Shown: positions 44,665 to 50,600, counted from the first letter of the stretch. The stretch: 64,000 nucleotides of DNA from Octopus vulgaris (GCA_951406725.2 OX597834.1:23374001-23438000), one strand, 5' to 3'. Notes: generated by a model not told the origin, from the letters alone. A program made the numbers and translations.

Positions 44665-47600
44665 GTAGGTAATACACACAAACAGAAAAAAAAACAGCCG
44701 TCAACGTGCGTAACTTAACTACACCCTAATTGCACCCCGATTCCCTCCCCCAACCCGGGGTGGTGGTCTCGTAACATTATGTGTGTATATATGTGTATAT
44801 GTATATACATATTCTACTTGTGATACGGTGTCTTTAAAATTATCTGCTGACATGGAAGAGTCCATTTTTAGACGAAGCAGGGGGTGGTGGAGGATAGTGT
44901 TGTGACGGGCGATTGGTTGGTAGTGGTGAACTAATGGAATCGTCCTGATTGGTTGAGTTGGGGGCATGTCTGGTGGTGCTACATTTATCTATATTTATCT
45001 TCTATTTTACTGGTTCTCGCTGACTATGGAAGGGTCCTCTCTCTCTAGGTATGTAGCAGCGTGTAAGAGCTGGTGTGTCTGTATATATATATATATATAT
45101 ATATATATATATACACACCTTTGCACAGCACATGGTAAACAGTCACTTTGTCTTGTGTTCCTAAAGAAAACGGCTAATATTATTTTTACCTCGTGCGTAC
45201 GCAATCGAACAGCAAAGTCGTTTTAGTAACTAATATAGTAGGGAAGTCGGGATTTGTGTGCATTGATAACATATTTTATAAAGTTGTAAAAGTGTATAAG
45301 ATGGGTGGTTGGCGTTACCTTGTTTCGAGGTAGTTAATGGGGTTCATAGGAATTTAATCTGTTACAATACGCACTCACTAACAAGTGGCTAGGAAATGTA
45401 GTTTTACTTAGATATATGCAGGGATTTCAAATTGTTTCATGTATTTAAACTTATGCTTTCAAAGCAGGTAGTTACTCAATATTTCTCCCGAAATTCCATA
45501 ATATAATGATTACTGCTATATTTTTATCCCCAGCTATGTATTTATTTGCCCAGCTACTTTTAATATATATTCTTAAATTTGTGCGCGCGTATGTATGTGC
45601 TTATATGTATGTATATATCTGTGGAGTGTATGTTTTCGTTTTTTGTTTTGTTTTTCCACGGTGTATCTAACCCGAATTTATATTTCAGGTAAACCTACTC
45701 GAACCAAAGATGGACATGATGTGCGGTCGTGTAAAGTGGCCGATAAATCCGGTTCGGTCAACGTGTCCGTGTGGGACGAAGCAGGCTGTTTGCTACAAAC
45801 CGGAGACATCTGTAAGCTGACGAAAGGGTTCGTGTTTTCGCCTCACCTCAAGCCAGCACTTGATGAAAAGGCTCTTTTATTTCCTACAAAATTCTCCGTC
45901 TATTCAATATTGTCACTGTTTTCTCGTTGGATAAAATAGGTACCAATCAAGGACTAAGTGATCGTAACCTTTCCTGAAGTGTGTGCTTGGTCCCTTTATA
46001 ATTATTAAGGAGAGAGCGGGGGTCAACCTAAGTCGCTAGAGTTCCCTCCCTTTACCACATTTATTTTTCTACTTTGGTTGTGTTGCATAGCACTTCGGGC
46101 AAGTCTATAACTGAACTCGTGTAGAACTAGTGTCCTGGGTATTGTGTGTCTATGCGTACCCACACAAGACCTAGACAAATAGACTAGGCTGAAAAAGAAA
46201 TTAATTGATGTCTCATATCGGCAATCTGGAGACAATACCGAAAGATTGCCGATTTAGCTGTTATCTTTTACCGGGTGGGTACTTTTTATCGAGCAGAATT
46301 AGGATGTAAGCACGTGCTATAAAAGTGAATACCGTTGTAGGGGTAGAACAAATAACTGCTTTCGTCAGTACATTTGTAACTTTTTGTAGAAATTCCTTGT
46401 ACCCAATGATGAGAAACCTGACTTGAGGTTCACTCAGTGAACAGCTGCTGTATAAATGTGTGAGTGTATGCATTTATGTATGTGCGAGTGTGTGATAGTG
46501 GCTGTTACTGAGAGGGAGCCTGTGACGCAGATTATGAGAGCTGAGGGTACATTGAAAAAAAACACAAAACTCCTTCCACGCCCTGGCTAGTGTCTGTAGG
46601 TACGACCCCTTGGTGTTATGGTTAGGAATGTGAAATTCCTCGAGGGGACGTCATGAGGTTAAGTAGTACACAAAATATCTTAAAATATTCCACTAAAATC
46701 ATTTGGTAAGTCCCGTCCTTATTCTATTAATCTATTTTGCCAAACCAGTAAAGGGAATGTAAAGAAACCAATAGTGGATCAAATGGTGGTGGAGACAGAA
46801 ATAGAGATGCGTAATATAAACACGATGGGCTTCTATGCAGTTTACATCTACCAAATTCACTCAGGTTATTGGGTTACGGTTAGGGCGATAGTAGAAGACG
46901 CTTGAGATGCTGCACAGGAGGGCTGAACCTGAAACCATGGGGTTACGAAGCGAGCTTAACCACTGAGCCATACCTGGATATACTTATAGTAGTTCTAGAC
47001 AGGAGACGAGTAGCAGGATGTACAACATTAATGGCACACGAGAACAGAAGCAGCCTGACAGGCTTCCACACAGTTTCCATTTAGTTTTGTTAACGCTCAT
47101 GGTTTGAATTAACAGACAAGGGAGGTAACTTATGGTGACAGTTCTGTGGTTCTTGTCATAGCAAATTGAATTTCTTAACCATACGACCATATTGTAGCCA
47201 CAGATCAAATAGGTTGACTAGACCTTATTAAAGGCGTTCCAGCCATGACCATCCTGGCTTGTATGTGGGGGAGATGCAGCTGCTATTTTCACAACCTCGA
47301 GGTTGGCTTGTATTATTGTAATAAGGGTAGATGCATTGCTTTATGGTTGGGGTGGGACAAATATTGTAGTTTCATGTACCCAATGATGAGAAACAGAACT
47401 TGAGGTTCACTCAGTGGATAGCTGCTGTATATATATATGTGTGTGTGTGAGGTTGTACGTGTGAGTGTGTGATAGTGGCTGCTACTGAGAGGGAGCCAAT
47501 GACACAGATTATGAGAGCTGAGGGTACACAGAAAACTTCCATGTTTTAACACTTATGGTGGGGTGTCTTTACAAGCAGAGAGAGACTGGATGTAATCCTG

Positions 47601-50600
47601 AGTGAGGGTTGCATTCTCTCAACCCTTTAGCTATGTCCAGCCTCTCACCCTACAATGTCATTTTCGAAATAAACTTTTACATCACTGAAATCTCAAAGCT
47701 ACTAAATGCATGATTAACTAAACACAATTTGAATAAATAAGCAATATTTTTAACTGAGGAATTTCAATGCTAAAGGGTGAAACCATTTTGTTCCTGTATT
47801 TCTGTTAAAATACCCAGACTTTGTTTGAATTATTTTGAAGAACAAAAAAAGAGTAATTTAGTAAAATATCTTTGTCATTATTAAACTTGTTTTGGACATA
47901 ACATGAAATTTTAATGGGTAGTTTAAATTTAGATCGCTTTAAAACCAGGGGCAATTTCAGGTATGTTAATTTCAAAGGTTATACAAGTGTATATGTATGT
48001 TTGGGTGTGTATGAGATTCATTACCTTCAATCATAAATTGCCTGCAGATCCTTTATACCTATAGATGAAACTTGTGGTTGCAAGAGACTGGCTTGACACC
48101 CAGCAATTCAAAGGTAATTTTTAAGCATATATATATATAAAAAATTGTGGACTTCCAGTTTCCATTTAGCAAATCCACTCATAATGGTTTGGTTGATTTG
48201 GGGCTACAGTATGAGACACTTGCCCAAGGTGCCATGCAGTAAAAAGGAACCTGAAACCATGTGGTTGAATGCTTGTATTCTGTGTGGATACTACTGTGGG
48301 GTTAGAAGAAACACTTGGTCGGTACAGTTGTAACTTAATGTAGAATATTTCCTGTACCCAATGATGAGAAACCTGACTTGAGGTTCACTCAGTGAACAGC
48401 TGCTGTATAAATGTGTGTATGCATTTATGTATGTTTGTGTGAGTGTGTGATAGTGGCTGTCACTGAGAGGGAGCCTGTGATGCAGATTATGAGAGCTGAG
48501 GGTACATGGAAAACGGCCAGTTACATTTACAGTTTGTGTTGACCAGAGCCACTAGGAGCTCTGATATGATTAAACTCAGTGACTTGATAGAAAAACGTTT
48601 TAACCAAACAGTCATGTTGTTGCTTAGCTTAAAGTCAACCCTAGTCAACTGCATTCCAGCCATGACCATCCCAATTTTTTAAGCATATTTAGTGAGGCCA
48701 TGTTGTGTTAGATGTTCTTTTTCTTTTCAATACAACTCACCAGATACTGCTTCTATTAAATTTTTCATGTTGAACACTTTTAATGCCAAACCACCTCAGA
48801 CTAATGCTGTTCAGATGATATTAACTTGTTTTAGAATTAAGAATTATCTAAATTAAAATTTCATGTTTATGTTCCAAACTACAGCCTAAGAGGAGTGACT
48901 AGATCAGTTTAAATTTTCAATTTTTACAATTAATTGAAACAAAGTCTGCATATTTCAACAGAAATGTGCTAACAAAAGGGTTAAACTTAAGAATAAACAG
49001 CAACAGTAGTATTGCAGCTCTATTTCCAGTAAACATTTTTCTGTTTTAAGGTGTGCTGTTGTGTATGGGAATTTAACTGACATCAGCAAGTGGCTTTGGG
49101 CAGTTTTGATGTTGCAGTAGAGAAGGCTGGAATCCTTACAGCTATTTCACTCCCTGATGAGGCATCGACTCTTGCATTTGGAGACAGAATACAGCTGCAC
49201 TCACAGCACTTTGTTTACCCCTATAAACAGACACAGACATTGTGTCCCCATAAAGTCTTCCTTCCCTCATCAGACTGGAGTGTCAATGTGTGTGTGTGTG
49301 TGGAACCCTTGTTGATTGGTTAAAATAAATCTATTTCATTTGTTGTTTCTTTATAGTTATTCCTCACTTTGGAAAGGATGTTTGACGCTGTATACTGGCA
49401 AGAATGGTGAAATCACCAAGATGGGAGAGTAAGTAATGTGGTTGTTGTTGTTGTTGTTGTTGCACTGTATGTCTTATGGTGGGGTTTGCCTCATTGATAA
49501 CCCCCCACACACAGTTTGAAGACAGCTCAATGTCAGATGAAGGATTAGCATAACAATATTTGATGTTTCTGTTATTTAACCTTGGTAGAGGTTATGTATG
49601 GTTAGCCCCATGACCATCCCATCTTACCTTTTTACTTTTTGAAGACAAGATGGGATTTAGGGATTTTTAGGAGATTGTGTGGTGGCAAAAGAGATCTGTG
49701 ATCGGTACTTTCCAGCTGTGGTAATGCTGTTGTTTATTTCTCTTTTGTACATTATCAAACGTACTCTTTTTTTTTTCTTTGGGTAGCAAGTTGGACAACT
49801 CACTTGAACCACCATCATTAATCACCACAGCAACAAGTCCTCACTATGACAACAGAAACCAATTTTATAATGTTAGAATTGGTTCTGTTCTCATTGTTCT
49901 CCAATATGTTCCTGTCTGTTTGCTTGAAGCAAATATGTGTACATGTTTTAAAAGGAGATTGTGTGTGTGGGGTCATCTTTTCACATCCATTTTCTGTGCT
50001 GGTATGAGTTAGTTTGACGGGATCCAATGAGCTACGGAGTTGCATCAGGCCCCAATGTCTCTTTTGGCATGCTTTCTACAGCTGGATGCCCTTTCTAATA
50101 CCAACAATACAGATTGTATGGGGTGCCTTTTTGAAACCCGAAATGGGGTTTTTACATGCAAGACTAAAATCCCCTTCAGCTAAGTGGGGTTACAGTAGAG
50201 AGGGATGTGGCACTTTGCTTGGAAATGAAAGGTTAAAGTGAAAGGGGCCCAAACAGAACAGGTTTCTTGCTGTTGAGAGGTTGCATGGTTATGCACATTA
50301 GAGTGGATGGGAGCAATCAGGGTGGAGGGCTATTTCTGTAATCTGTTGTTTTTCTTCCTTGTATTCTTTGGCTGCCATTTTATATCTAATGTTTCTTGTT
50401 TTGTTCTGTTTCATTTTTCTCCCTTCCAGATTCACGATGCAGTTTATTGAGACACCAAACATGAGTGAAGCCAATTTAGATTTCAAGGTACTTCTTTCTT
50501 TTTGGAATAATCTGGATAATTAATTGAAGGCCCAGGTGTGGTTCTGTGGTAAGAAGTTTGCTCCCCAATAACATAGCTTTGGGTTGAATCCCAGTGGAAA

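Follow-up and report, generated by a model that had tools for sequence, protein, structure and literature searches.

What do three near-identical box C/D units in a single octopus intron guide, and on which form of their target would they act? The window analyzed here is a 64,000-nucleotide (nt) stretch of Octopus vulgaris DNA (GCA_951406725.2 OX597834.1:23374001-23438000; coordinates are counted from its first letter), and the units lie within an intron of a SOSS-B/NABP gene. Our reading, to which we assign a probability of about 0.75, is that the three units are guide RNAs of the SNORD97/SCARNA97 type that direct methylation of C34 of elongator methionine transfer RNA (tRNA-Met), likely already on the intron-containing precursor. 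An original prediction for this locus had proposed both the guides and their target; the intron in the target genes, which it did not foresee, is the more surprising part.

Three predicted guide RNAs with invariant boxes, stem and guide

The triplicated C/D units, described by the original prediction as ~153 nt long, align without gaps at 154 nt each, with spacings of 977 and 978 nt. Each contains, in order, a 7-base-pair (bp) terminal stem, box C (ATGATGA), a 12-nt guide element, one G and box D (CTGA). In all three units the terminal boxes C (RUGAUGA) and D (CUGA) are perfect, as is the 7-bp stem that closes them. All features lie on the + strand:

46398..46551, +, predicted guide RNA copy 1 (154 nt including the terminal stem; fold z -3.28)
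47375..47528, +, predicted guide RNA copy 2, the most diverged, with six consecutive UG in the apical hairpin (fold z -2.71)
48353..48506, +, predicted guide RNA copy 3 (fold z -4.35)
46406..46412, +, box C of copy 1, read from the sequence; copies 2 and 3 at +977 and +1955
46423..46426, +, putative box D' (TTGA) of copy 1, after a 10-nt spacer, assigned by mirror geometry
46427..46520, +, apical hairpin between D' and C', invariant in its basal helices and GU/AU-alternating at the top; candidate for a Cajal-body signal
46522..46528, +, putative box C' (RTGAYR), aligned with the corresponding segments of the SNORD97 and ceN56 models
46528..46539, 47505-47516 and 48483-48494, +, antisense element at box D, complementary to elongator tRNA-Met 31-42, with the D-5 G opposite C34
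46541..46544, +, box D (CTGA) of copy 1, read from the sequence

Identity among the units is 84-94%, against 43-72% within the nearest 60 nt of flank and 47-55% at 60-260 nt away. Across the copies, the 5' stem with box C (15 columns) and the guide with box D and the 3' stem (24 columns) show no variation; variable columns number 2/31 and 2/35 in the basal hairpin arms and 17/32 in the GU-rich apical segment. Between copies 1 and 3, a loss of 4 nt is balanced by a gain of 4 nt that leaves the unit length unchanged. The predicted folds beat shuffled sequences in every unit, and the guide 12-mer has three exact matches in the window versus a mean of 0.49 in shuffles, for which one mismatch was allowed.

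We then searched the Octopus genome (G000 below; L numbers denote individual loci). The count of three copies proved right, since a DNA search returned three full copies of the unit plus two short matches to its simple-repeat part. The unit is thus not a dispersed repeat; to be a high-copy one was among the outcomes that the original prediction had named as fatal to itself. The guide together with box D occurs 19 times in the genome, and a box C lies within 260 nt upstream only in these three units.

Inside each unit, a 5-bp invariant helix has a degenerate D' candidate on one side and a degenerate C' candidate on the other, in a mirror arrangement. 3' of D', this helix is followed by two more invariant helices and the GU/AU-alternating top, and the hairpin then returns to the likely C', which varies at 4/7 columns and directly precedes the guide; this assignment would put 12 nt between C' and D. 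The D' spacer is 10 nt long, with 3/10 columns variable between copies. We did not take a CTGA within the hairpin for D', since it pairs inside an invariant helix. A second guide function was likewise dropped: among the RNAs tested, none pairs with the D' spacer over more than 8 bp, and shuffles did as well as a seeming 11-bp helix with tRNA positions 3-13.

The units lie in sense in one NABP intron

The assignment of the units to an NABP intron held up. For the exon at 45689-45827 the protein match is SOSS complex subunit B1 (E 2e-17), and a Pfam search with its 45 residues gave no family. Four host-gene exons with GT/AG ends connect into one open frame:

44577..44664, +, first coding exon of the host gene, with a putative start codon
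45689..45827, +, SOSS-B/NABP coding exon 5' of the host intron (protein match, contigs, open frame)
45828..49356, +, host intron (GT..AG, 3529 nt), with all three copies in sense orientation
49357..49428, +, SOSS-B/NABP coding exon 3' of the host intron (contigs, open frame)

Contigs from two of the four runs examined (X7 and X10, which carry differing organism labels and whose RNA type is guessed) skip 45828-49356, which places all three copies in a single intron, 570 nt after the donor and 850 nt before the acceptor. No skipping was found in the contigs of the other two, much larger runs, for which the kind of data is not given. This comparison covered 4 of 24 runs, and contigs cannot show RNA ends, strand or level; their depth over the units, which repeats confound, was not used as evidence. 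Among the 40 of 187 rows examined, copy 1 or copy 3 is covered by contigs whose runs carry other organism labels, and in two of these contigs the guide is altered at its outermost base (48483, D-13), which lies beyond the 10-bp core.

Two further observations concern this region. Dispersed high-copy repeats with very deep contig cover lie in the host introns at 47650-47900, 48180-48270, 48860-48990 and 50040-50110, and a 69-nt imperfect inverted pair (47781-47849 and 48914-48982) surrounds copy 3.

The guide matches elongator tRNA-Met and places D-5 on C34

To collect the target genes, we used a gap-allowing tRNA-Met pattern that leaves the intron start free; it fixes part of the T-arm, and genes with another T-arm would be missed. 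The pattern gave 49 genome matches versus 0 for the control. Of these, 37 were intact under a one-mismatch rule, and 12 were left out as degenerate or truncated.

The proposed target stood up to this comparison, as did the placement of D-5. In 36 of the 37 intact genes, the guide is the exact complement of positions 31-42 of the spliced elongator tRNA-Met, with D-5 on C34. Against the species' own tRNA-Met, the duplex comprises 12 bp with the spliced form (about -16.9 kcal/mol) and 10 bp with the unspliced precursor (about -12.9 kcal/mol); on both, an antisense of at least 10 nt precedes box D and its fifth base faces position 34. The best rival duplex of the D guide, among one copy each of this genome's 18S, 28S and 5.8S ribosomal RNA (rRNA) and its U1, U2, U4 and U5 small nuclear RNA (snRNA), has 9 bp including 2 G.U pairs.

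The expectation that the species' tRNA-Met would contain the complementary sequence was correct for the spliced molecule but not for the genes, where an intron splits it, so that the 12-nt complement arises only after splicing and the precursor offers a 10-nt complement. A genome search with the bare 12-nt target gave 352 matches versus 258 for the reversed control, with a tRNA in 0 of the first 30 loci. A pattern search for intronless genes hit two places and no intact intronless tRNA-Met with the 12-nt complement in the genome: one is a 5'-truncated tRNA-Met remnant (L037), and the other is without a tRNA call. The remnant (L037:1380-1660, G000:C18) is intronless and followed by a T run; it is possibly a retroposed spliced tRNA.

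The units share with the SNORD97/SCARNA97 family an invariant D-box antisense selecting C34 and a sense-strand location in a precursor messenger RNA (pre-mRNA) intron. By functional definition they are predicted SNORD97/SCARNA97-type guides, though outside the Rfam family score. The resemblance of their 3' end to SNORD97, noted earlier, is borne out by a sub-threshold alignment in which the SNORD97 model (RF01291) aligns end to end. The best Rfam match is Caenorhabditis ceN56 (RF01643; 24.1 bits, E 0.046, full length), and the guide, one-base spacer and D box line up in both models. Knock-out of SNORD97 and SCARNA97 established that both methylate human elongator tRNA-Met at C34 (PMC6601510).

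The tRNA-Met intron begins with a copy of three bases of the 3' exon

An intron follows A37 in 48 of the 49 tRNA-Met matches. Excising 15-22 nt after A37 restores the anticodon arm and fits the canonical site, as eukaryotic tRNA introns sit between 37 and 38 (PMC10275265). ARAGORN recognizes 37 of the 49 as tRNAs with an intron (36 Met, 1 Leu), which it puts at varying positions. Among the 29 distinct introns of intact genes, ATC at +1 to +3 and GAG at -5 to -3 are invariant, and no other profiled position is. By the general rule for tRNA introns, a purine at -3 pairs with pyrimidine 32; here -3 is G in 29/29, and GAG is the expected partner of C32-U33-C34.

The intron ATC repeats tRNA positions 38-40, and because of this copy the guide still makes 10 bp on the unspliced precursor. 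In 47 of 48 precursors these are contiguous Watson-Crick pairs running from D-2 to D-11. A C/D particle takes up no more than about 10 nt, and its core pairing runs from D-3 to D-11 (PMC7229835); conservation of the intron ends at +3, the last base of that core. As a control, we examined tRNA-Tyr in the same genome, where 0/29 introns are ATC-led though the 3' exon starts with ATC (ATT or ATCG in single copies). The control was read by eye on 30 of 48 loci, with one truncated locus left out; the loci came from a short pattern (48 matches), a longer first pattern having given 0. Internal pairing of the precursor found no support as a role for ATC, the mean pairing probability being 0.21-0.36 with scattered, non-recurrent partners.

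Two side observations may be recorded here. At position +4, the 29 distinct introns of octopus (L038-L085) have A in 22 cases, C in 5 and G in 2 but never T, although T would lengthen the guide duplex. Of the 48 tRNA-Tyr pattern matches, 43 fall in one 163-kilobase (kb) cluster (G000:C4:51909592-52072580) that includes a five-copy tandem run with a period of ~188 nt.

ATC-led tRNA-Met introns occur in other animal-like sequences

A metagenome scan for intron-bearing tRNA-Met yielded at least 124 loci, at least 141 match rows and at least 97 distinct introns; all counts from it, here and below, are among the matches listed. Gene bodies within 8 mismatches of the octopus gene were classed as near, and those with 12 or more as far. 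On near, animal-like bodies, 68 of 75 distinct introns are ATC-led, and 22 of 25 distinct near bodies have exclusively ATC-led introns; on far bodies, only 2/21 distinct introns are. Three more introns on cut-off bodies, tallied apart, are all ATC-led, whereas tRNA-Tyr introns in metagenome loci are ATC-led in 0 of 5 distinct cases. Beyond the ATC, no letter exceeds 53% at +4, +5, +7 or +8 of near-body introns, and +4 is T in 15/75. G stands at -3 in 96 of the 97 introns.

Two near loci were placed, and the others are animal-like by sequence only. L187 is coral-like, since the named relatives of its histone H1 are almost all stony corals, and the proteins of L210 cluster with dust-mite proteins. 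Several far loci are gene-dense and, by eye, fungus- or alga-like. Separately, ATG-led tRNA-Met introns occur in one lineage (L146, L155 and L156; also L153, L206, L224, L229 and L240), with dense tRNA clusters in L146 and L156, and ARAGORN calls introns in tRNA-Gly(GCC) too in L146, L155 and L156.

The apical hairpin and a possible Cajal-body signal

A GU-rich apical hairpin with a G.U/U.G wobble stem is typical of vertebrate C/D small Cajal-body RNAs (scaRNAs) that modify snRNAs (PMC4041459). The octopus units contain 14-15 UG dinucleotides each, with longest UG runs of 3, 6 and 3 in copies 1, 2 and 3. By analogy, the GU-rich hairpin top might send the particle to Cajal bodies, a proposal on which we are evenly divided.

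Which reading fits best?

Under our reading, the host pre-mRNA would be spliced and the units would assemble with fibrillarin, Nop56, Nop58 and 15.5K and be trimmed free. Judged from the sequence, such release and assembly are very probable. The guide would then open the anticodon region for fibrillarin to methylate C34, and formation of methylated C34 (Cm34) on elongator tRNA-Met may be expected with the same high confidence. With less assurance, though still as the favored view, we propose that the substrate is or includes the intron-containing precursor. The 10-bp duplex (D-2 to D-11) would form before tRNA splicing by way of the intron ATC, and selection would maintain the ATC for that reason. 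As the guides are identical, the three copies are likely redundant dosage duplicates.

Several observations weigh against this reading. At the gathering threshold, Rfam gives 0 matches in the window. The SNORD97 check that accompanied the original prediction did produce an end-to-end alignment but failed on score, with 19.5 bits (copy 1) and 18.8 bits (copy 3) against a gathering value of 45, copy 2 unlisted at E up to 10, and ceN56 scoring higher. Covariation among the copies scores 0, from three sequences only. In the precursor, the position of C34 lets it pair with intron G-5, from which it has to be freed; the neighboring C32:G-3 pair has a probability above 0.5 in only 15/29 folds. Paralogous introns are non-independent events. 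Seven of the 75 listed near-body introns are not ATC-led (six ATG, five of them in one body group, and one AAC), and many coral-group introns open with a longer copy of the 3' exon, which suggests an origin by duplication and hence a likeness that is partly historical. As to the hairpin, G.U pairs make up 6/19, 9/21 and 11/22 of the predicted pairs (32-50%), and octopus DNA abounds in such simple repeats. Lastly, the spliced tRNA pairs better than the precursor, so action after splicing is fully possible.

This last point leads to an alternative that we consider possible, although unlikely: the same guide at the same site acts only on spliced tRNA, and ATC is kept as a duplication relic or to serve the endonuclease or another modifying enzyme, such as the machinery that forms N6-threonylcarbamoyladenosine (t6A) at A37. 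The stronger spliced duplex speaks for it, as do the longer exon copies in coral-group introns. Formation of t6A prefers an A after position 37, which could account for +1, although such a need would leave +2 and +3 unexplained. Human elongator tRNA-Met, moreover, comes from intronless genes and is still modified (PMC6601510; preprint of PMC10576143). Yet conservation halts at +3, exactly where the D-3 to D-11 core ends, and a neutral relic should have decayed between coral, mite and octopus as the positions from +4 onward have. Neither octopus tRNA-Tyr introns nor far-body tRNA-Met introns are ATC-led, so the endonuclease has no general need for ATC.

Other fates for the locus appear weaker than methylation guided by three separate particles. 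Introns with two small nucleolar RNAs (snoRNAs) yield sno-lncRNA-like RNAs (long noncoding RNAs ending in snoRNAs) in mammals, and since all three copies sit within a single 3529-nt intron, trimming could leave mainly a 2.1-kb RNA of that kind with guide particles at both ends and methylation as one domain's task. We find this improbable: the spacers are unconserved between copies and contain dispersed repeats, and each copy, the middle one included, has its own perfect 7-bp stem, as expected for separate maturation. A reading of the units as repeats without function, or as pseudogenes derived from a working guide gene elsewhere, would suit their microsatellite-like sequence, but it is hard to credit when the functional columns are invariant and the flanks at background, the length is the same in all copies even where a 4-nt loss had to be offset by a 4-nt gain, contigs from runs with other organism labels cover copies 1 and 3, and the genome search finds no further copy with a box C. 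Least credible of all is a Cajal-body guide for spliceosomal snRNA or rRNA with a secondary tRNA match. The GU-rich hairpin, typical of snRNA-modifying scaRNAs (PMC4041459), and weak Rfam matches to SCARNA7 and sno_ZL1 point that way; against it, the D guide and D' spacer reach at most 9 bp, including G.U, on 18S, 28S, 5.8S, U1, U2, U4 and U5, and the spacer differs between copies at 3/10 columns.

Neighboring genes and other genome observations

Approximately 9.5 kb upstream of the host gene, a single long frame (33662-35068, +) encodes NSUN6, a tRNA C72 methyltransferase according to its relatives' names; its product clusters at 90% with Octopus NSUN6. From ~1 to 30061 (+), exons with WD40, RCC1 and C-terminal HECT domains make up the 3' portion of a large ubiquitin ligase gene of the HERC type, which we take to be HERC1. 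Elsewhere in the genome, the rRNA genes are longer than the Rfam models (18S, 2643 versus 1831 nt; 28S, 4890 versus 3401 nt; L268:4364-9253 and L269:1138-3780, G000:C20), in an array with a period of ~18.4 kb (G000:C20). A search with RF00015 (U4) gave 42 scored matches, six strong and 36 weaker and dispersed, which suggests many U4 pseudogenes or a U4-derived repeat.

Novelty and implications

The guide-RNA triplet is real and probably unannotated. The original prediction had presented it as a mollusc guide module: the functional definition holds, but not its newness, because invertebrate homologs had already been predicted. Single SNORD97-type homologs are predicted in insects, Ciona and plants, with molluscs unnamed in the text consulted (PMC6601510), so a mollusc guide alone is an expected gap-filler. 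What is new here is the host gene, the internal architecture and the intron-bearing target; the kind of guide was already known.

Recent surveys based on GtRNAdb describe animal tRNAs as essentially intron-free apart from Tyr, Ile-UAU, Leu-CAA and Arg-UCU (PMC12530127, 2025) and place tRNA-Met introns in plants and fungi (PMC12168002, 2025). The octopus, coral-like and mite loci contradict the absence of tRNA-Met introns from animals and suggest a selective reason for the intron sequence. Our literature search, which did not extend to GtRNAdb listings or supplementary figures, found no report of mollusc SNORD97 homologs or of ATC-led animal tRNA-Met introns; within the same literature, again without supplementary figures, neither the animal intron-guide pairing nor a ceN56 target was found in print. 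ATC-led introns may already be listed in GtRNAdb or in annotations without comment.

A broader proposition seems to us evenly balanced: tRNA-Met splicing would be an ancient trait, spread widely across animals (cnidarians, chelicerates, molluscs) and lost in the usual models, ATC would have been held since before the coral-octopus split for the guide duplex, methylation would occur on the precursor, and the octopus guide might carry a vertebrate-style Cajal-body signal. If true, an overlooked animal tRNA intron gains a sequence-level job. Human work leaves open the place and order of tRNA methylation relative to processing (PMC6601515, PMC10576143). The octopus precursor can be told apart by its intron, which human tRNA-Met lacks, and this makes the before-or-after question testable; what tRNA introns are for is a second question that the intron-bearing target opens to test.

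Angiogenin is known only from vertebrates, so the benefit of the mark in octopus is not given by the human case; most likely it lies in tRNA stability or in a defense against other anticodon nucleases. In humans, the C34 mark blocks angiogenin cleavage (PMC6601510).

Comparison with known guide systems

Human SNORD97 and SCARNA97 (SNORD133) share with the octopus units an intronic sense location, an antisense core one nt before box D, and D-5 on C34; relative to the SNORD97 model, the octopus unit has a similar length and terminal stem. The hosts differ, NABP in octopus against EIF4G2 (SNORD97) and LARP4 (SCARNA97), and so does the copy number, three in one octopus intron being unlike either human gene. 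The target genes are intron-bearing in octopus and intronless in human. The octopus interior is a long GU-rich hairpin, whereas SCARNA97 is without GU repeats and uses a pyrimidine-rich signal; no such long pyrimidine-rich signal is present in the octopus units, whose interior alternates purine and pyrimidine. SNORD97 also has a D' guide that pairs tRNA-Met near G10 or G22 (PMC10576143 and its preprint). No counterpart emerged in octopus, where the D' spacer makes at most 5 bp on tRNA-Met and a second 14-mer duplex is matched by 19-46 of 60 shuffles.

Like U90/SCARNA7 and mgU2-47, the octopus units are, by prediction, intron-encoded C/D RNAs with a long apical hairpin and a GU/UG-rich alternating top. 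Those scaRNAs, described in vertebrates, guide snRNA methylation, and Drosophila uses another motif (PMC4041459).

In ceN56, the box C region of the model and the whole 3' end (antisense, one-base spacer, D-like box and stem) match the octopus unit at 48355-48504. Filed as an unclassified small RNA, ceN56 is shorter than the octopus units, with no GU hairpin evident in its printed parts; its level falls after depletion of C/D proteins (PMC2442092). Elongator tRNA-Met is not among the intron-bearing tRNAs of C. elegans (PMC12530127). From this alignment, ceN56 is probably a nematode member of the same family and would likely be the C. elegans tRNA-Met Cm34 guide, which proposes a target for this orphan.

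The closest parallel for pairing with an intron lies outside animals. The plant D97 homolog and archaeal guides (Haloferax sR-tMet) direct C34 methylation on an intron-containing pre-tRNA whose intron joins the guide duplex, and human chimeras suggest pre-tRNA targets (PMC10576143). The concept of intron-guide pairing was therefore already known; in octopus, the start of the intron copies positions 38-40, so that one guide fits both the precursor and its product.

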